From a virus, in UHGV virus genome UHGV-0299153: a stretch of 64,000 nucleotides of DNA; one strand, 5' to 3'. Shown here in pieces: positions 3,910 to 52,261 of this stretch. A program made the translations under genes and the position numbers. The notes under the pieces are model-generated. The model searched no databases. It was not told the DNA's origin and worked only from the letters and a program-made list of their open reading frames with translations. Every line of letters begins with the position of its first letter. The stretch's first letter is position 1.

Positions 3910-4209
3910 ATGTTTATCCAGGCTAATAATCTTTATTTCTTTGATGGTCAGATCGTAGACGGCGTGGAGGTGGAAATCACCGGGTGCCCTGGCGGTCAGG
4001 TTATGACTTTTCGGAATAATGCCTTTGATGATTCTCATATCGTTATGAGAATGGAAGTTAGTAAGCTGGATGACAAGAAAACACTTATCGACTATTCCGT
4101 CAAAGATCATCCAGACTACCACATGATCTATGGTGATTTGTGCATTGTTGACCGTGACAAGGTGAACGGCATTGTTATAGCCATTGTGAACGATGTTTTC
4201 TCTGAATAA
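3910..4209 (+). CDS. hypothetical protein (99 aa)
   Basis: Internal ATG of ORF 3889-4209, 7 nt after GGAGG. Confidence 0.55.
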   Translation: MFIQANNLYFFDGQIVDGVEVEITGCPGGQVMTFRNNAFDDSHIVMRMEVSKLDDKKTLIDYSVKDHPDYHMIYGDLCIVDRDKVNGIVIAIVNDVFSE

Positions 4210-8089: not shown

Positions 8090-8108
8090 TTTTTTAACTG
8101 AATTATCA

Positions 8109-8132
8109 AGGGGCTTAGGCCCCTTTCTTTTT
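8109..8132 (+). terminator. Rho-independent terminator ending the rightward early block
   Basis: AGGGGC/GCCCCT stem, TTAG loop, then TTCTTTTT. Confidence 0.6.
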
Positions 8133-8749
8133 GTCTGCTCTTCTCCTACCATAAACGGCCCTACCTGGCAAGTGGAATAATTGACTAGCCATCAATCCCG
8201 CATACTGTACAAATATACATGGAAAATAACTATTGCATAATTTTTCATTGTGTGGTAGCAAGTCCATTTTTACCCGTTTTCTCTCCCAAAAGTGCACGTA
8301 ATGCCGCTATTGCACAAATTTTAACCTGATGCACATCTCCAATATCTTGTCAACAACTAAAAATCTTTATAAGTCATACACTTACACAGCATCGAAAGCG
8401 TGTTCTACGCGAAAAATCGAGTATAACTATAGCCGCCAGATCTCAGAATTCACGTACGCACGCCATTCTATAGCCTGCAAAGTATTTATTCCAACCACAG
8501 AATAACGGAATAGTCAATACCTGCATAAAATAATTATTCGTGTAAACTGCATAACATAAATCAGCTCAGGTGTCAACATTTTTCGTAAACAGTCCGAAAT
8601 TATCACGATGAGTTATCATAAACAGAGAAATCTTTAGTCGTCTAATGTTTACTGTACATTACTATACTGACTGGAATCATTAGATGACTAAGAGAAAGAT
8701 AAGAAATAATTAATAATGTAATTATTTTACCTGTAACAATAAGGCAACT

Positions 8750-9030
8750 ATGCAAACGAATGGCATGGCGCGACGGAGTCGCGACATAATATAAAAGCAG
8801 TAACCATCACCCCCGTGATAGTTTGTCTGCAAACTATTAATCAGATCATAGTTGCCTTGTATTTAGTTAATCGTGACATAACAAGCAAGGCAACTATAGA
8901 TCTTCTAATAGTTGCCCTGCTTTTATATTATGTCATAGAAACACCCGAAGGGGTGACCAAAGGTCACCTGGCATAGCCAGTGAAAGATTGTAAACAAGTT
9001 AATTATTATCATGCAAACGAATGGCATGGC
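8750..9030. repeat. 20-bp direct repeat ATGCAAACGAATGGCATGGC (8750-8769 and 9011-9030)
   Basis: Exact match read from sequence. Confidence 0.7.
8783..8934. repeat. 18-bp perfect inverted repeat GACATAATATAAAAGCAG / CTGCTTTTATATTATGTC enclosing GGCAACTAT/ATAGTTGCC sub-repeats
   Basis: Arms at 8783-8800 and 8917-8934; GGCAACTAT at 8743 and 8889, ATAGTTGCC at 8848 and 8908. Confidence 0.7.
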
Positions 9031-9042
9031 TTATCATCTCTG

Positions 9043-9097
9043 TGTAAATAGTTTGTTTGTAAACAGTTTATACGTGAACAGTTAGCTGTGTAAACTA
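9043..9097. repeat. Cluster of TGTAAA(C/T)AGTT-like iterons
   Basis: TGTAAATAGTT, TGTAAACAGTT, GTGAACAGTT, TGTAAACTAT within 55 bp; related copies near 8540, 8825 and 9359. Confidence 0.55.
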
Positions 9098-10585
9098 TCA
9101 GGCATGTCAATTATGCCCGGTGTGTTTAAGGTGCCCAGTATGTCAGACAAGTTTTTCTCCTCTTTGTCAAGTGCTGCATGAAAAATTTACAAACTGGTAT
9201 GGTAGCATTTTTGCGGCCCTGTTTACATTCAGTAATGTATGTATAATCCTTGTTGTGTGGGCGTTTAGACGTCTAGACGGTTGGAAGTCCACAGGTCAAT
9301 ATCTAATCTATCGGCTGCTAACTATATCCCACACAAATAGTAAGAAATATAATTGTTATGTGTGTAAACAGTAACTCATGTTATCAATCCCTGTATGGAT
9401 CGCCAGTGGTGCGCATAATGGGTATTATGTTAAATTGCCCGTAATGATAACTATTCTCACAATGATAGGTATTCTCATTCCCCCACACAAAATAGATTGC
9501 AAATGTTGTGCCACTATGTGAACGGCCTCACCTATTAATTTGCCTCACTGCCTCGATATTTGAGAATTATTATAAGAATGAGAAGTATTCCCATTCCGTC
9601 CGCCTGGCAGCACTCCAGTCGCTACCGCTCATGACAGGGCAGAACTGGGTCCATTCAGATATTTCTGGCTGACTCTTCAGGCCTGTGTGGGAAAAGCCAA
9701 CCTCTCCGGCGGCGGCGGGGAGGGGTTTGTCAGGAAAATTGCAGGTCAATTAAAAAATTTACGGGGTATATGAAGCGCTCTTCAGATAAGGCATGTATTA
9801 TGGGATGAAACCCTCTTCAGGCAATGATATTTGTGGGTGTGATATTTGCTGGAAAGCCAGATATGACGGGACTCCCGGCGGGGCAGGGGTAGTACAGACA
9901 GGGAAAATATGGAGGATGTGGTTGGGTAAATTGATCAGGCAGGTAGAGTATGGAATATGTTACAGGTATGTTAAATAGGGAGGCTGAATATCTGTAGGAT
10001 TTGTGTGTAAAATCAAAGACTTAAGGGGTGTTGTGGTATTTTCTATAAATAATTCAAGTTTAATAGGCAATATTTGTCTCTATCCGCTTTGTGTGGTAAA
10101 CAGATTCAGATTAGATTGGTTTACAAGTGTATACATAATATACAAATTAAAGATACAAGAAACCCCCCTCCCCCTTCGGCTACCATTCACCTTTTCCTCT
10201 GACTGGTACTTAAACACTTATTCAGACTTTTCAGGTTATCACCCATATACCATATGGCAGTGACTGGTGTCCTCCGGCCCCTCTTTCGTCACCCGTCCGC
10301 TTCGCCATGCTAATGCCATAGCCAATGGTTCGGTTGTTCACCCTGTTCACTCAGGTGTATCTCCATACCCCTTCAAACCGAAGAGAACAGAAAACCCGAA
10401 TTACTCGGTAAAAGAAAAGAGAAGAACTTAATTTTATCAGGATAGGCAAGAATGTCAAGGCATGACTGCTCACTAAACAAGCAAACAGTCATGTGTGGGA
10501 GGTAAGTGATTGTGGTGGTAGGAAATTTAGTTGAAAGATGTGTTATAGGTGCTCCCAGCACTTTAGCCGGGTAGCTAATTGTGTG

Positions 10586-13572: not shown

Positions 13573-13901
13573 TAGTCTTCCTCCAGGTTCAAAGGCCCTA
13601 AGATTTCATATGCCAGATTAGAAGTTACCAGAGGGTCTTCTGCATCTTTAGTATTGTACCACCCGTGAATAACCAGAGTCCCACTTTGTTTCATGTCCAA
13701 CTGGAACTCTTCTGCCGTTTCCTCATCCAGCTCCAAGATTTCCATGAGGTATTTGATGTTAGGAAGGTATGCAGCTGTTACAGTTCCCTCCACCAAACCT
13801 TCGGGCCAACCTACATCCGGATGACAAGTAGGAACCAAGTTGGTCAACTTAATGGTGTACGCTTTTTCTGCACGAGCCTTCAGTAACGGGTCAATCTTCA
13901 T
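13572..13901 (-). CDS. hypothetical small acidic protein
   Basis: ORF in tightly packed leftward array; 1-nt junctions with neighbours. Confidence 0.5.
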   Translation of the reverse strand: MKIDPLLKARAEKAYTIKLTNLVPTCHPDVGWPEGLVEGTVTAAYLPNIKYLMEILELDEETAEEFQLDMKQSGTLVIHGWYNTKDAEDPLVTSNLAYEILGPLNLEED

Positions 13902-14251
13902 TATTCGTCCTCCTCTTCGGTGCCTGCTTCCAGTAATAAGTTAAGAATATCTTCTGCACAAGGCTCATAGAACTCTTGGCCTTCATTATCGATGATTTTG
14001 TAGTCATCTCCACGAATAATCAGTGGATCACTCTCAAAATTATCGAGACCTTTAACAACGACAACACGATCGATTGCCATCATTGTAAGAACTTTATCGA
14101 CATCTTCCTCTGCTACACCATACTGCAGCAGAATGTCTTTGGTAGGAGGAACAGCATCCACCACAACGCCGTTACCAAAACCTTCTGGAAGTTTAGCTAA
14201 AATATCTTCCGGAACCACATTCACATCAAAACCGGTAATTTCTACTTTCAT
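13901..14251 (-). CDS. hypothetical small acidic protein (paralog of 14252-14512)
   Basis: Shared EED...MM.ID..V.V block with neighbour. Confidence 0.5.
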   Translation of the reverse strand: MKVEITGFDVNVVPEDILAKLPEGFGNGVVVDAVPPTKDILLQYGVAEEDVDKVLTMMAIDRVVVVKGLDNFESDPLIIRGDDYKIIDNEGQEFYEPCAEDILNLLLEAGTEEEDE

Positions 14252-14512
14252 TTACAGCACCTCTTCGTCAACTACTTCATAAAAATGGCCTGGGATTGCA
14301 ATAGCGTTCTCACCTTCACCTACAAACACAGTTCCGTCAAGAATCAACATCATAAGAATGTCTGGAATATCCTCTTCCGGAACGTTGCCAAAACTTTTAA
14401 TCAGTTTGTAGGTTGGAAGATTTACCTCTAAGATGTCACCATCTTTAGAACGGAAATCTACACCGTCCTGAATCTCTGCCGTTTCAAGGTTTTTCAATTT
14501 AATCTTCATCAA
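14252..14512 (-). CDS. hypothetical small acidic protein (paralog of 13901-14251)
   Basis: ORF track; similarity to adjacent gene. Confidence 0.5.
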   Translation of the reverse strand: MMKIKLKNLETAEIQDGVDFRSKDGDILEVNLPTYKLIKSFGNVPEEDIPDILMMLILDGTVFVGEGENAIAIPGHFYEVVDEEVL

Positions 14513-14984: not shown

Positions 14985-15343
14985 TACCGCACCTCCTCAA
15001 TAACTTCCACATCTGAACCCACCACAAATGCAAAAGGACAGGTTTCATGAAAGACATCCGGATCTCCGCCAAGCTTGCTAACAATTTCTCCACCACTAAT
15101 AAACACAAGCTCACCGATATTCATCAGATTGCTGAAATAGTATCCATAATGATTAAAGAATGCAGCAGGGTCAGGTAGACTAGTGGCCTCAAGTTCTACA
15201 TCGGTTGAGATTACTTTCTTATCATAACCTCTCGCCTTCTGAGATGCAAGATCCGCAGAATCTTCAGGCGACCGGAGATGCACAGGAATTGTTTCACCAA
15301 TAAAGCGTACTTTCATATTATCACCCAACAACCATAGCTTCAA
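14984..15343 (-). CDS. hypothetical small acidic protein (GSD/AGA family)
   Basis: ORF track; similarity to 15321-15584 and 17201-17455. Confidence 0.5.
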   Translation of the reverse strand: MKLWLLGDNMKVRFIGETIPVHLRSPEDSADLASQKARGYDKKVISTDVELEATSLPDPAAFFNHYGYYFSNLMNIGELVFISGGEIVSKLGGDPDVFHETCPFAFVVGSDVEVIEEVR

Positions 15344-15584
15344 AAGGGGTCATGAACGAATAAACGGCATCATCATCTGCTTCAGGGAATGCTCCCAAAG
15401 ACTTCATGTCTGAGCCCTTGACAAATACAAGGTTTTGATCAAAAGCTTCTTGGGGATCAATCCGATACATATTTCGTAGAATATCGCTTACCTCCTCATC
15501 AAGAGGTGAGTATGCTGTGCACGTTTTTCCGATCAAGCTTTGAGAATCAGGGTATCCACCTGAAGTTTTAAAATAAACAATCAT
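15321..15584 (-). CDS. hypothetical small acidic protein (GSD/AGA family)
   Basis: ORF track; VFVKGSD..SLGAFPE resembles VFILGSDLIAAGAPE. Confidence 0.45.
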   Translation of the reverse strand: MIVYFKTSGGYPDSQSLIGKTCTAYSPLDEEVSDILRNMYRIDPQEAFDQNLVFVKGSDMKSLGAFPEADDDAVYSFMTPFEAMVVG

Positions 15585-15674
15585 ATAGTATCACCTCTGG
15601 TAAGAGATGGGATTCCTTTCCCACAAATAATTACAAACCTTCCTTATCGAGGAAGTATGCTAATACAAGCAGGA

Positions 15675-15944
15675 TTATTCCTCTACAATCTCATACACAT
15701 CAGGAGTTACAATCAACTCTTCTCCGTTACCCGGTGCAATAAACACCACCAAACCTTCAGGTGTGTGCTTTTTAGCCATCTCGATAACATCTTCCCGCAG
15801 AGCTGGCTCCATCAGATCAAAACCTTCACCCAGGGCATCACGAACCACCTTCATATAGTCCACTGGTTGTGCTTCAACAATCATGCCTTCAACCAGACCA
15901 CAATTTTTGTCTGCCAGCTCAGTTTTGAATAATTTAATTTTCAT
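15675..15944 (-). CDS. hypothetical small acidic protein
   Basis: ORF track. Confidence 0.5.
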   Translation of the reverse strand: MKIKLFKTELADKNCGLVEGMIVEAQPVDYMKVVRDALGEGFDLMEPALREDVIEMAKKHTPEGLVVFIAPGNGEELIVTPDVYEIVEE

Positions 15945-16081
15945 TTAGAGGTCTCCTCAATTATTTGATATTAATAGCCGTAACCTAACACATTAACTAC
16001 AACTGCGATTGCAAACATAATTTCAAAGCATGCAATCTCTACATTTGGGACTAATTTCTTAATCACATCCATTGTAGCACC

Positions 16082-16399
16082 TCATTCTCCAAAGTCAATC
16101 TTTACTTTGCCTTTCCCCTTACCTTTCTTTCCACCGCATTTAGCCAGCTGACGTGCTGCAACATCTACCATACGGTCAGTTGCCTCGTAAGCATCACTGC
16201 CTTTAGCCTTGGCAATAACTTCTTTTCCAGAATTGTCAAAAATGAACGCCATAACTTCCTGGTGATCATTTTCAACTTTTACACTCACACGTGCATAGTT
16301 GGCAGATGGGTGCAAACGCTCCAGCTTAGACATTTTGTGGGAAATGAAAGACACCATACCTTCAGTGATTTCTACGTTGCCAGTGATTTCAATTTGCAT
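16082..16399 (-). CDS. ribosome hibernation promoting factor / RaiA-like protein (S30AE family)
   Basis: MQIEITGN-VEITE...KLE...VKVE...GKEVIAKAKGSDAYEATD..VDVAARQL aligns by eye with E. coli HPF MQLNITGNNVEITE...KLE...LKVEK...GGEIHASAEGQDMYAAIDGLIDKLARQL; AAGGAA SD; own promoter. Confidence 0.8.
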   Translation of the reverse strand: MQIEITGNVEITEGMVSFISHKMSKLERLHPSANYARVSVKVENDHQEVMAFIFDNSGKEVIAKAKGSDAYEATDRMVDVAARQLAKCGGKKGKGKGKVKIDFGE

Positions 16400-16446
16400 A
16401 ACGTGTTCCTTTTAAAGAAGAGGGAACCAAACCCTCTTTTAAAACA

Positions 16447-16475
16447 ATGATACTAAATCTGAAGCGTTGTGTCAA
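16447..16475 (-). promoter_or_regulatory. sigma70-like promoter for the HPF-like gene
   Basis: On minus strand TTGACA-17 bp-TATCAT, then leader hairpin (16419-16437) and SD. Confidence 0.5.
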
Positions 16476-16481
16476 CAGTTT

Positions 16482-16772
16482 TTACAGCTTGTCGTCGATA
16501 GTTTTTAAAATATCCACAGCAAGATCTGCCATTTTTCGAACATACTCTGCAAACTCAACAGGATCCTTGATCAAAGAATTCACAGGGTCGTACCCTAGAG
16601 CGTTCAAAATGGCTGCAGCATCTACAACCTTCTCATCATTTGCGAAGATCTCTCCATCAAACTTGTAGGTCCATTTTGAGTCAATCTTGGCAGGGAAGGA
16701 TTGGTCAACGCTTGTTACACCATCCTTTTTAAACTCTCCGGTGTTATCCGTGTCCAGAACTAAATCCATCAT
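16482..16772 (-). CDS. hypothetical protein (96 aa)
   Basis: ORF track. Confidence 0.5.
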   Translation of the reverse strand: MMDLVLDTDNTGEFKKDGVTSVDQSFPAKIDSKWTYKFDGEIFANDEKVVDAAAILNALGYDPVNSLIKDPVEFAEYVRKMADLAVDILKTIDDKL

Positions 16773-16789
16773 GTTAGTACCTCACTGTT

Positions 16790-17188
16790 TCAGTTTAGCT
16801 TTTCTTCAACAATCCCATAACTTGGGGCAGAGTCAAGAGCTTTCTGGTTTAAAAGTGGCGTAGCAGAATCTGCAAACGGTGTCCAAGTTTTTGTTCTGGC
16901 GTTCCAGTAATGCTTCACTCTGGAATCTGGATGCACTATAACAAAAACTTTTTCACTTGTCAACACATTAATTTCTTCCACACCCCTGCTGATAATTTCT
17001 CCGTCATATCCCCCGGTCTGGTATCCTTCGTACCAGGTTCTTGCATAGGCATAGCCAGCCTGCCAGCATGCAGCCTCCTCCGAGGTGGAGACTACGTAGA
17101 AGTCTTTCTCAAATTCTGGGATACGCCCTTGCTTTACGCTCCAAGCTCCGCGAATTTTCATTGTAACTTTGAATAGTTTATTTTTCAC
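16790..17188 (-). CDS. hypothetical protein (paralog of 14589-14984)
   Basis: Shared HPDS...HYW....TWTP motif. Confidence 0.55.
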   Translation of the reverse strand: MKNKLFKVTMKIRGAWSVKQGRIPEFEKDFYVVSTSEEAACWQAGYAYARTWYEGYQTGGYDGEIISRGVEEINVLTSEKVFVIVHPDSRVKHYWNARTKTWTPFADSATPLLNQKALDSAPSYGIVEEKLN

Positions 17189-17200
17189 AACGGTTACCCA

Positions 17201-17455
17201 TCACAGTTCTACAATATCTGCATCTGACCCTGCCCCAAAGGCATAATAGGACTCTTCCCCGAAATAATATTCCGGTGCACCAGCAGCGATCAGGTCTGAT
17301 CCCAAAATGAATACCACGTTGTGTCCTACATAGCTGTGATTTTGCCGCACAGGATCATCCCACGGCAACCCTTCGAAGTATACCGCAGGGACGACCTTTC
17401 CTTTCAGGAAGGATTGCCCCAAGTAGACGTTAGAATCAAGAATTTTAACCTTCAT
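17201..17455 (-). CDS. hypothetical small protein, DLIAAGA family
   Basis: Motif GSDLIAAGA shared with 17445-17672 and 21098-21331. Confidence 0.55.
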   Translation of the reverse strand: MKVKILDSNVYLGQSFLKGKVVPAVYFEGLPWDDPVRQNHSYVGHNVVFILGSDLIAAGAPEYYFGEESYYAFGAGSDADIVEL

Positions 17456-17672
17456 GATCGTCCTCCACTATCTCTACATCCTCACCTAGGGCAAAGTTGT
17501 AGGTCCACTGACTGTCAAAGCATTCCTGAGATGCACCAGCGGCAATAAGATCTGCCCCTTTTATTTTTAAAAGGTCAGGGTAATCTTCGTTAGGGACAGC
17601 AGTAAACACTTTCCCTACTAAAGGCTCCTGACCAATATAGAAGCTTGAATCTAAAACTTTAACTTTCATCAA
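17445..17672 (-). CDS. hypothetical small protein, DLIAAGA family
   Basis: Motif KGADLIAAGA; N-terminus MMKVKVLDSS parallels MKVKILDSN of neighbour. Confidence 0.55.
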   Translation of the reverse strand: MMKVKVLDSSFYIGQEPLVGKVFTAVPNEDYPDLLKIKGADLIAAGASQECFDSQWTYNFALGEDVEIVEDDHEG

Positions 17673-17956
17673 CGGTCTCCATCAGGTGGTTGTGGGACGT
17701 AAACACTGTTACGAATATCGTCCGCAGTATAGTAATAAGTGTCTCCAACCCTATCTCTGGCTGCAATGTACTCTGCTATACCAATAAGTGCCATTGATTT
17801 GGTGGCGTATCTTCCCAACTCGTTAGCTCCCCAGTAGAATTTAGACCAATAGGGAATAAGACCGAACAAATATACCTTTTGACGAACTTCCCAGTAAGTG
17901 CCTTTCCCGACAAGTTTAAACTCAACTTCACCACTGTTAATCTTTTTCATTATCAA
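17669..17956 (-). CDS. hypothetical protein (95 aa)
   Basis: ORF track. Confidence 0.5.
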   Translation of the reverse strand: MIMKKINSGEVEFKLVGKGTYWEVRQKVYLFGLIPYWSKFYWGANELGRYATKSMALIGIAEYIAARDRVGDTYYYTADDIRNSVYVPQPPDGDR

Positions 17957-18249
17957 TCTACCTCCACCGTGGTTGGATTGTCAGTAAGAAATTGAGCATT
18001 AGCTGGAGGCACGCCTGACATTTTCCACACAACCATAAGTTTGTAACCAGGCACTCTATTAAGTGCAGATCGAGTAGAGTTTGTGCACGTATATTTTCGC
18101 TTTCCAAACCCGTTTTCAAGCATGATCCAGTATCCCGTGTCTTTATCACCTGGAATTGGTAATCCCTCATCGTCCACCCACTGAATGGACCACGGCACGA
18201 TGGCTACAGCTTTATATTTAAACTTTTTAAACCACTCAAAAAGTTTCAT
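17953..18249 (-). CDS. hypothetical protein (98 aa)
   Basis: ORF track; preferred over nested same-strand ORF 17958-18170. Confidence 0.5.
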   Translation of the reverse strand: MKLFEWFKKFKYKAVAIVPWSIQWVDDEGLPIPGDKDTGYWIMLENGFGKRKYTCTNSTRSALNRVPGYKLMVVWKMSGVPPANAQFLTDNPTTVEVD

Positions 18250-51447: not shown

Positions 51448-51522
51448 GCCCTGTTAGCTTAGTGGATAAAGCAGCGGCCTTCTAAGCCGTTGACACTGGT
51501 TCGAGTCCAGTACGGGGTGCCA
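51448..51522 (+). tRNA. tRNA-Arg (anticodon TCT)
   Basis: Cloverleaf folded by hand: acceptor GCCCTGT/ACGGGGT, anticodon loop CTTCTAA, T-arm ACTGG-TTCGAGT-CCAGT, encoded CCA. Confidence 0.75.
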
Positions 51523-51526
51523 AATT

Positions 51527-51613
51527 GGGGAGTTATCCCGTAGAGGTAGCGGTGTAGACTGTAAATCTATTGTCATTGCGACTCGGGTGGTTCGACTCCA
51601 CCACTCCCCACCA
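51527..51613 (+). tRNA. tRNA-Tyr (anticodon GTA), type II
   Basis: Acceptor GGGGAGT/ACTCCCC, anticodon loop CTGTAAA, long variable arm, T-arm GGTGG-TTCGACT-CCACC, encoded CCA. Confidence 0.8.
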
Positions 51614-51728
51614 AATTTATATTTTTTAGATGCATAAATAATACAGATAATGGCATTGATATTTATCGTCGTTTATACTAGTCACTAACTGCTCGAAAAT
51701 CAGTGTCATTATCAGTATAATTTATAAA

Positions 51729-51819
51729 GGAGGGTAGGGAGCAATGGTGCTCAAGCGGTCTTGAAAACCGTCCCGTTGAGGATGACTCGATGATGGTTCG
51801 ATTCCATTACTCTCCGCCA
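51729..51819 (+). tRNA. tRNA-Ser (anticodon TGA), type II
   Basis: Acceptor GGAGGGT/ACTCTCC, anticodon loop CTTGAAA, long variable arm, encoded CCA. Confidence 0.75.
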
Positions 51820-51917
51820 CATTGTTGACCTTGTAATTAAGCGAAAGCCGGAAGCAGAACCGGATTATCAAATGTTACAGTCGTCATCGCCGACTAGCAA
51901 CATGGTCAACATATTGA

Positions 51918-52014
51918 GCTAGGTAAGCCCTTTGGCAAGGGCGAGGATTTTTAATCCTGAAAATAGACGAGGTAGTCGTTGAATACATAGGTGGTTCGAT
52001 TCCACCGCCTAGCA
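51918..52014 (+). tRNA. atypical tRNA-like gene (anticodon loop TTTTTAA, apparent UUU; about 30-nt variable region)
   Basis: Acceptor GCTAGGT/GCCTAGC, D-arm GCCC-TTTGGCAA-GGGC, T-arm GGTGG-TTCGATT-CCACC; only a 4-bp anticodon stem; no encoded CCA. Confidence 0.45.
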
Positions 52015-52021
52015 CCTTTTT

Positions 52022-52097
52022 GCTGATGTAGCACAATTGGTAGTGCAATTGATTTGTAATCAATAGGTTGCGGGTTCAAGTCCTGCCATCAGCACCA
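52022..52097 (+). tRNA. tRNA-Thr (anticodon TGT)
   Basis: Acceptor GCTGATG/CATCAGC, anticodon arm ATTGA-TTTGTAA-TCAAT, encoded CCA. Confidence 0.75.
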
Positions 52098-52098
52098 T

Positions 52099-52173
52099 GG
52101 CCCTGTAGCTGGAAGGTTCAAGCAAGCGACTCATAATCGCCAGACGGTGGTTCAATTCCACCCAGGGCCACCA
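52099..52173 (+). tRNA. tRNA-Met (anticodon CAT; could be an Ile-lysidine type)
   Basis: Acceptor GGCCCTG/CAGGGCC, anticodon loop CTCATAA, T-arm GGTGG-TTCAATT-CCACC, encoded CCA. Confidence 0.75.
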
Positions 52174-52184
52174 AATAGTAGATA

Positions 52185-52261
52185 CTCCGCGTAGCTCAGC
52201 TTGGTAGAGCGCCTGATTTGGGATCAGGAGGTCGAGTGTTCGAATCACTCCGTGGAGACCA
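52185..52261 (+). tRNA. tRNA-Pro (anticodon TGG)
   Basis: Acceptor CTCCGCG/CGTGGAG (one GU), anticodon arm CCTGA-TTTGGGA-TCAGG, T-arm GAGTG-TTCGAAT-CACTC, encoded CCA. Confidence 0.75.

Follow-up and report, generated by a model that had tools for sequence, protein, structure and literature searches.

Introduction

Gene 144 of the Escherichia coli phage rV5 stands in GenBank (DQ832317) as 'ORF 144, sigma 54 modulation factor', with a promoter entered as 'Sigma70-type promoter; P144', and its product, gp144 (ABI79209), bears the RefSeq name 'ribosome-associated translation inhibitor RaiA'. Mizuno et al. (2019) listed the protein as a virus-encoded HPF (PMC6375957), and Mathieu et al. (2020) mentioned the rV5 hpf gene 'as already described' (PMC6969025). 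The present analysis concerns a protein 100% identical to rV5 gp144, encoded in a 64,000-nucleotide stretch (the window) of the virus genome UHGV-0299153. Its gene is a 105-amino-acid open reading frame (ORF) on the minus strand, with the ATG at 16399 and a TGA stop codon at 16084–16082, and the product reads MQIEITGNVEITEGMVSFISHKMSKLERLHPSANYARVSVKVENDHQEVMAFIFDNSGKEVIAKAKGSDAYEATDRMVDVAARQLAKCGGKKGKGKGKVKIDFGE. A first-pass annotation, made from the DNA alone, had placed at 16082–16475 a ribosome hibernation factor (HPF/RaiA) homolog of a lytic phage, with its own promoter; that span comprises the ORF, its leader and its promoter, the strand having been left unstated.

Judged by sequence, the window is an rV5-like Vequintavirus, in agreement with the description as a lytic phage; over the 3 kb around the gene, more than 100 E. 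coli phages of the Vequintavirus (rV5-like) group share 97–99% identity with it. The suggestion that the gene may be undescribed was wrong, because it is annotated in the rV5 record and was reported by both groups cited above. With annotation in 2006 and publication in 2019, the gene itself was already known, and so were the family it belongs to and its promoter. Of the 119 phage records with the gene, many give it an HPF-type name (hpf, ribosome hibernation factor, RaiA, sigma 54 modulation factor). Our literature search found no functional study later than Mizuno et al. (2019) and Mathieu et al. (2020), and the Paride paper on infection of dormant cells does not mention rV5-like phages. What is newly added here is the analysis of selection, the limitation of the gene to two phage lineages, the changes at ribosome-contact positions that these lineages share, and the shift of positive charge away from the helices towards the β-sheet and the tail.

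Public annotation of the gene is inconsistent, the names above standing beside 'hypothetical protein', and seven of the records listed call it 'ATP-dependent protease La Type I', plainly an error. Eighteen 'Campylobacter phage' records (MG0656xx) also match positions 15000–18000 of the window, those listed at about 97% over 3 kb, which suggests that their hosts are mislabelled.

The protein belongs to the S30AE superfamily

The homology to HPF/RaiA, first seen in an alignment by eye, was confirmed by profile searches. Pfam PF02482 (Ribosomal_S30AE) matched residues 3–88 significantly at E=1.8e-12, its 48.3 bits exceeding the gathering score of 23.7, and NCBIfam TIGR00741 (HPF/YfiA family) scored 45.9 bits, above its cut-off of 40.9. 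The best matches found with phmmer among Protein Data Bank (PDB) entries were chains of E. coli HPF (2rql, 4v8h and 6h4n; E about 5e-12 to 2.5e-11), aligned from 1–89 on 1–89. BLASTP gave 43% identity (38/88) with E. coli HPF and 25% with YfiA/RaiA.

The fold was modelled from the single sequence with AlphaFold2. The model is of low confidence (predicted local distance difference test, pLDDT, of 58) and places β-strands at residues 3–7, 35–43, 48–55 and 60–66 and α-helices at residues 13–29 and 70–88, with residues 89–105 disordered (pLDDT below 50). Profiles, BLASTP and the model thus delimit a predicted β-α-β-β-β-α core of residues 1–88, encoded at 16136–16399 on the minus strand. All of the 30 best Foldseek matches of the model in the PDB are HPF, RaiA or protein Y (pY) structures (E 3e-8 to 1e-4, template modelling (TM) scores of 0.62–0.74).

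Scores against the narrower equivalog models were lower. The E. coli-type HPF equivalog NF007780 gave 55.8 bits, less than half of its 125-bit cut-off, and the RaiA equivalog NF007654 gave 17.6 bits, far below its cut-off of 158. By sequence, the protein is a member of the S30AE superfamily that lies nearer to short HPF than to RaiA and is an ortholog-grade copy of neither.

These scores bear on a reading close to that of the first-pass annotation, in which the protein works as a canonical short HPF, forming 100S particles with host RMF or blocking the decoding centre, for host shut-off or ribosome storage. Short HPF of gammaproteobacteria turns the 90S dimers that RMF induces into 100S particles. 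Its best sequence and structure matches are the short HPFs of E. coli and Vibrio rather than RaiA, the HPF equivalog outscores the RaiA equivalog, and its size is close to that of short HPF. The shortfall against the HPF cut-off speaks against this reading, as does the C-terminal extension of the protein, which is of the kind by which RaiA reportedly antagonises RMF. A tblastn search of the 64-kb window for RMF, Sra or a second HPF returned nothing below E=0.1 except the gene itself, so no phage RMF was found there, and global silencing from an early promoter would presumably block phage translation as well. Moreover, expression of the protein had no discernible effect on 100S particles (PMC6375957). 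Taken together, we consider a canonical HPF activity improbable.

The gene is confined to two phage lineages and is under purifying selection

The gene was found in 119 of about 121 Vequintavirus records. A full HMMER search against 1.84 billion cluster representatives yielded one further close cluster, P0004, a protein of 103 amino acids that is 64–65% identical and derives from uncultured phage contigs of about 125–137 kb; cellular HPFs came next, with 31–45% identity and E-values of at least 2.5e-7. Likewise, a word-index search returned five clusters only, and IMG/VR two loci. The gene is confined to these two phage lineages. The window and the P0004 locus are collinear, with 29–82% identity between neighbouring proteins and 64% between the HPFs, so that the common ancestor of the two already carried the gene.

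When E. coli HPF was searched by tblastn in 50,697 phage records, 130 matched, about 119 of them rV5-like; among the others are a few fragments and a jumbo phage of Xanthomonas. The sole Salmonella match, a supposed 'Salmonella phage' homolog (AGRM01000002.1), was rejected, being a 691-kb chromosomal contig of Salmonella enterica and no phage. A protein of 1160 amino acids (P0006) was also observed in which eight separate stretches match residues 35–81 (β2–β4) of the phage HPF (E=2.9e-9); rather than an HPF, this looks like a repeat protein, perhaps made up of S30AE-like β-units.

Compared with two diverged Vequintavirus copies, the ratio of non-synonymous to synonymous substitution rates (dN/dS) was 0.05 (dS 0.24) and 0.04 (dS 0.74). 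Over core residues 1–88, the proportions of non-synonymous differences (pN) against the loci L006 and L007 were 0.014 and 0.024, with synonymous proportions (pS) of 0.23 and 0.45. The gene is under strong purifying selection and is therefore no decaying passenger. The view that it is a captured host gene carried without function, or a chance ORF, draws on the absence of a demonstrated function alone and is effectively refuted by this selection analysis, in which the low dN/dS values go with substantial synonymous divergence. Retention in 119 phage genomes and in the 64%-identical lineage, the conserved promoter and the detection of the protein when expressed (PMC6375957) argue in the same direction, and we attach almost no probability to this view.

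Both phage lineages have lost helix contacts and gained charge elsewhere

In the HPF of Thermus thermophilus, Tyr31 stacks on the h24 loop, Arg86 and Arg93 contact h44 phosphates, Arg103 contacts h23, and Tyr77 is a highly conserved structural residue (PMC6177447). These positions were compared in an alignment of T. thermophilus HPF (sequence identical to 2ywq_A), the phage proteins and 20 cellular homologs. Tyr77 corresponds to Tyr71 and Arg93 to Lys87, both retained. Tyr31 is replaced by Leu29 and Arg86 by Val80 (Thr80 in P0004), so that two of the four contact positions mapped from T. thermophilus HPF are changed, in both phage lineages. Among the cellular sequences, position 29 is aromatic or histidine in 17 of 21, and position 80 is lysine or arginine in the same proportion (17/21). 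The conserved Arg16 and Lys89 and the near-invariant acidic Glu50 have also been lost in both lineages, and in both the β-sheet has acquired basic residues, namely R37, K41, K59, K64 and K66. Kept are the family-conserved positions K22, K25, R28, E43, G58, D69, Y71, D75, D79, R83, Q84 and K87, together with the ARQL-K helix motif.

The Lys/Gly-rich tail that the first-pass annotation had noted is present, the segment GGKKGKGKGKVK occupying residues 89–100. The whole C-terminal extension past α2, assigned from composition and predicted disorder, comprises 17 residues (89–105, GGKKGKGKGKVKIDFGE; 16085–16135, minus strand) whose sequence is unrelated to the RaiA tail. It has an isoelectric point (pI) of 10 and a net charge of +4, the core having a pI of 5.9. 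The tail is conserved within Vequintavirus (pN 0–0.05); that of P0004 is different, basic and of about the same length, and a K-[IW]-D-[FY]-like motif ends the tails of both phage lineages.

Such changes could also mean that the HPF fold has been neofunctionalised and now works off the ribosome. Its α/β architecture, resembling domains that bind double-stranded RNA, would then serve together with the remodelled positive surface and the tail to bind a different ligand, be it a host protein, some other RNA or, sponge-fashion, a nucleotide signal. The losses of R16, the aromatic residue at 29, K80, K89 and E50 and the charge gained on the β-sheet in both lineages would fit this, and so would the distance to the nearest cellular HPFs, only 31–45% identical among 1.84 billion representatives. 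The shared K-[IW]-D-[FY] end could be a docking motif, and Acb4 of phage SPO1, to which the model has a weak Foldseek match, offers a precedent for an HPF-like fold with another job. The sole published test furthermore found neither ribosome association nor an effect on 100S particles (PMC6375957). However, that negative result is weak owing to a high-salt wash, most family-conserved residues are kept (ARQL-K included), sequence similarity to Acb4 is absent and the TM-scores to HPF/RaiA structures are far greater, and no data indicate an alternative ligand. We regard a role away from the ribosome as a serious competitor of the RaiA-like binding proposed below, though a less probable one.

Promoter, leader and ribosome-binding site

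The promoter proposed earlier lies at 16475–16447 on the minus strand and corresponds to P144 of rV5. It reads TTGACA-17 nt-TATCAT, near the σ70 consensus (11 of 12 positions). Across the window, the pattern TTGACA-N16-18-TAnnnT occurs 29 times, against 3.0±1.9 times in dinucleotide shuffles (about 10-fold enrichment; 0 of 100 shuffles reached 29), and the strand of the matches tracks the orientation of the gene blocks; because of this enrichment and strand bias, the match at 16475–16447 is no chance occurrence. The −35 hexamer and an upstream AAACTG are invariant in five related phage loci, the 64%-identical lineage included. Promoters of this class are recognised by unmodified host RNA polymerase. 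The rV5 genome paper puts the number of consensus σ70 promoters at 33 and that of small ORFs in this region at about 88 (PMC3606486).

A Shine-Dalgarno sequence, which the first-pass annotation had also noted, was read directly from the DNA as a Shine-Dalgarno-like AAGGAA at 16406–16411 (minus strand), 6 nt before the ATG. It is conserved in rV5 and L007, and GAGGAG stands in its place in L006.

The leader hairpin fared less well. A stem-loop of 7 bp (AAGAGGG, a 7-nt loop, CCCUCUU; 16418–16438, minus strand) is indeed present as an inverted repeat and in the predicted folding, but it is no more stable than shuffled sequence, with a minimum free energy of −9.9 to −11.1 kcal/mol and a z-score of about −1.0. 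Across four lineages, the leader folding z-scores were −1.0, −2.0, +0.1 and +0.5. L007 retains the hairpin, L006 carries an altered form and the diverged relative L002 has none; on the shuffle z-scores and this absence the hairpin was rejected as a significant element and is regarded as a minor, unproven feature. It was likewise rejected as a terminator, having no T-run and not being called in a terminator scan. A function such as stabilisation of the mRNA 5' end would be conjecture.

The L002 leader (3941–4001) is about 26 nt shorter than the corresponding stretch of the window (16400–16481), and GAGGG, the 5' arm of the window hairpin, serves there as the Shine-Dalgarno sequence, 5 nt before the ATG. 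By sequence, the hairpin and the new AAGGAA of the rV5 lineage look like the product of a small insertion or duplication.

A RaiA-like mode of action is tentatively proposed

Our leading proposal, made tentatively and with a little less than even confidence, is that the protein resembles RaiA in binding vacant host ribosomes at the cleft between 30S head and body, weakly and reversibly, its tail placed in the mRNA channel. Gene 144 would be a long-diverged descendant of a gammaproteobacterial short HPF gene. Host RNA polymerase would transcribe it from its own σ70 promoter, among small, presumably early genes. That it is expressed early, and that its product acts on the ribosome, are both inferences. 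The core would dock at the HPF/RaiA site in the 30S head-body cleft, which overlaps mRNA and the A- and P-site tRNAs. Docking would take place on vacant ribosomes, and the loss of two conserved helix contacts would make it weaker and more reversible than the docking of host HPF. The tail, flexible and polycationic, may extend along the mRNA channel, like the RaiA tail or the long-HPF linker. Idle host ribosomes would thereby be parked or protected as 70S monomers and host HPF and RMF out-competed, so that no 100S dimers would form and the ribosome pool would stay quickly available for phage mRNAs. The ribosome-silencing or ribosome-protecting role suggested by the first-pass annotation is likewise presumptive, with the protein far below both equivalog cut-offs and two of the four mapped contact positions changed.

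The retained core, the lost contacts, the long tail, the absence of a 100S effect and the loss of the protein at 500 mM NH4Cl fit a RaiA-like binder. Furthermore, the longer, basic, disordered tail, the lack of an RMF in the window and the unchanged 100S levels point to a RaiA-like rather than an HPF-like outcome. Host HPF, RaiA and RMF are reportedly salt-labile peripheral factors, and the RaiA tail is said to clash with RMF.

The co-sedimentation and 100S assays that the first-pass annotation proposed as a check have already been published once, with a negative result. Mizuno et al. expressed the protein from pBAD24 in uninfected E. coli NM522, harvested the cells at an optical density (OD600) of about 1, at the end of exponential phase, and pelleted ribosomes through a 500 mM NH4Cl/1.1 M sucrose cushion; 100S levels were unaltered by expression (PMC6375957). 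As possible reasons they named the wrong growth phase, a genuine loss of binding and dissociation by salt, and they deemed the result inconclusive (PMC6375957). We agree that it is not decisive, because of the 500 mM NH4Cl cushion and the use of uninfected cells at OD600 of about 1. The same authors raised the idea that a viral HPF may compete with the host factor and so prevent dimers (PMC6375957).

Several points nevertheless weigh against a RaiA-like ribosome binder. In that test, the protein was seen in the crude extract, and no peptides of it were found in the 70S and 100S fractions (PMC6375957). The protein falls far short of both the HPF and the RaiA equivalog cut-offs. The replacement of the Tyr31 and Arg86 equivalents, and the loss of Arg16, Lys89 and Glu50, affect both phage lineages. 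The role proposed for the tail is drawn purely by analogy, and our literature search found no transcriptome or expression-timing data for rV5-like phages.

It is also conceivable, at a probability below that of a RaiA-like binder, that the protein is no hibernation factor at all and acts either as an anti-hibernation decoy that blocks host RMF and HPF or as a non-ribosomal RNA or nucleotide binder paralleling Acb4. This view keeps its share of probability because helix contacts have been lost, the β-sheet charge and the tail motif have been acquired, and co-purification with ribosomes failed. If the decoy reading were true, the protein would be the first viral anti-hibernation factor. If the protein acts on ribosomes, whether by protection, by silencing or by blocking hibernation, it would provide a handle on how a lytic coliphage controls idle host ribosomes; rV5-like phages are widely used in phage-therapy and biocontrol collections. 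The mapped differences (Leu29, Val80, the loss of Arg16, Glu50 and Lys89, the β-sheet lysines and the K-Φ-D-aromatic end) amount to concrete mutants and hypotheses.

Other features of the window

Immediately downstream of the gene lies a 33-amino-acid ORF (MDVIKKLVPNVEIACFEIMFAIAVVVNVLGYGY; 15971–16072, minus strand), the equivalent of rV5 ORF145, which starts 9 nt past the HPF stop codon. It has its own GAGGTG Shine-Dalgarno sequence and a hydrophobic C-terminal half; no Pfam match was found for it, and it has no counterpart in the diverged phage L002. A promoter-like TTGACT-16-TACAAT (16098–16071) overlaps the 3' end of the HPF gene.

Small acidic ORFs flank the HPF gene at 13901–14251, 14252–14512, 15675–15944, 17201–17455 and 17445–17672, all on the minus strand. 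They start with MK[IV]K[IL] and end in ...E[IV]VE[ED], and none has a Pfam domain; by sequence they look like paralogs of one another. The ten ORFs flanking the gene gave no Pfam domain in all.

About 2.5 kb of the window, at approximately 8100–10580, are without a convincing ORF, holding only short ORFs of at most 86 amino acids on mixed strands. The region corresponds to the 'non-coding' region 104013–106618 of rV5 (PMC3606486) and separates opposed gene blocks, σ70 matches lying on the plus strand below about 7.6 kb and on the minus strand from about 10.4 kb. G+C content falls to 0.365 there, with a reversal in the sign of the GC skew. Short repeats crowd the region. The 20-mer ATGCAAACGAATGGCATGGC occurs, letter for letter, at 8750 and at 9011; the motifs TTGTAAACAGT and ATAGTTGCC add to these, and the stretches 8783–8800 and 8917–8934 form a perfect inverted repeat of 18 nt. 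No Rfam match was found in the region, which is a candidate for an origin of replication or for a region of regulatory RNA.

Further along, a tRNA cluster lies at 51448–52261 on the plus strand, in which ARAGORN calls seven genes. These include a 99-nt 'tRNA-???' with a four-base anticodon (atcc) at 51918–52016 and a tRNA-Ser(tga) at 51729–51819, both missed by Rfam, which at its gathering threshold reports five tRNAs only.

Comparison with known systems

Gene 144 of rV5 and its orthologs in other Vequintavirus genomes (FV3, FFH2, BASEL phages and others) share with the window the promoter P144, the gene order and the 33-amino-acid downstream ORF145. The window shows no difference of substance from rV5; over 3 kb, its DNA is nearest to that of phage nimi, at 98.8%, with rV5 at 97.1% across the same stretch.

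Other phages likewise carry PF02482 members, among them Cronobacter phage GAP32 (AFC21633), the Xanthomonas jumbo phage XaC1 and the family phrog_8990. These belong to different sequence families, the present protein falling in phrog_12469 (E=7.5e-71) and matching phrog_8990 only at 1.5e-6, and they are probably independent acquisitions, as Mizuno et al. hold (PMC6375957).

[quoted passage not shown] Acb4 is a tetramer with nucleotide pockets. Assignment of the present protein to the Acb4 sponges was rejected, 9E4W being absent from the PDB phmmer results at E<=1 and giving Foldseek E-values of about 1e-2 and TM-scores of 0.42–0.44. The supplementary files of the Acb4 paper, including its phage list (Table S1), contain no entry for rV5, Vequintavir, Bas4 or Bas5, and the Acb4 screen is therefore uninformative on rV5-like phages.

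Among characterised proteins, E. coli HPF is the nearest relative by fold and identity, and RaiA by proposed working mode. E. coli short HPF (YhbH; 2RQL, 4V8H, 6H4N; NF007780) is collinear with the phage protein from Met1, at 43% identity over residues 1–87 and with the same predicted fold. Both have the helix motifs KxxKLE and ARQLxK as well as Tyr71, whereas R17, Y30, D/E50, K80 and K89 of the E. coli protein are replaced in that of the phage. E. coli HPF ends shortly after the core (KDKLKQH), while the 17-residue Lys/Gly tail of the phage protein is about 10 residues longer. The hpf gene of E. coli lies in the rpoN operon; the phage gene has its own σ70 promoter within an array of small ORFs. 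In the published test, the phage protein showed neither a 100S effect nor association with ribosomes (PMC6375957).

The N-terminal domain of long HPF (T. thermophilus; 2YWQ, 6GZQ) shares the fold (Foldseek TM-scores of 0.71–0.83), the equivalents of Tyr77 and Arg93, and a basic segment after α2, which in long HPF is the linker. In contrast, the C-terminal dimerisation domain of long HPF is absent from the phage protein, and the Tyr31 and Arg86 equivalents are Leu and Val/Thr.

E. coli RaiA (YfiA, protein Y; 1N3G, 4V8I; NF007654) belongs to the same superfamily, with the same fold and a C-terminal extension past α2. Its tail is longer and has an acidic end, whereas that of the phage protein is shorter, Lys/Gly-rich and ends in IDFGE, and the two proteins are only 25% identical. 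The working mode that they are proposed to share would be binding to 70S monomers, antagonising the formation of 100S particles.

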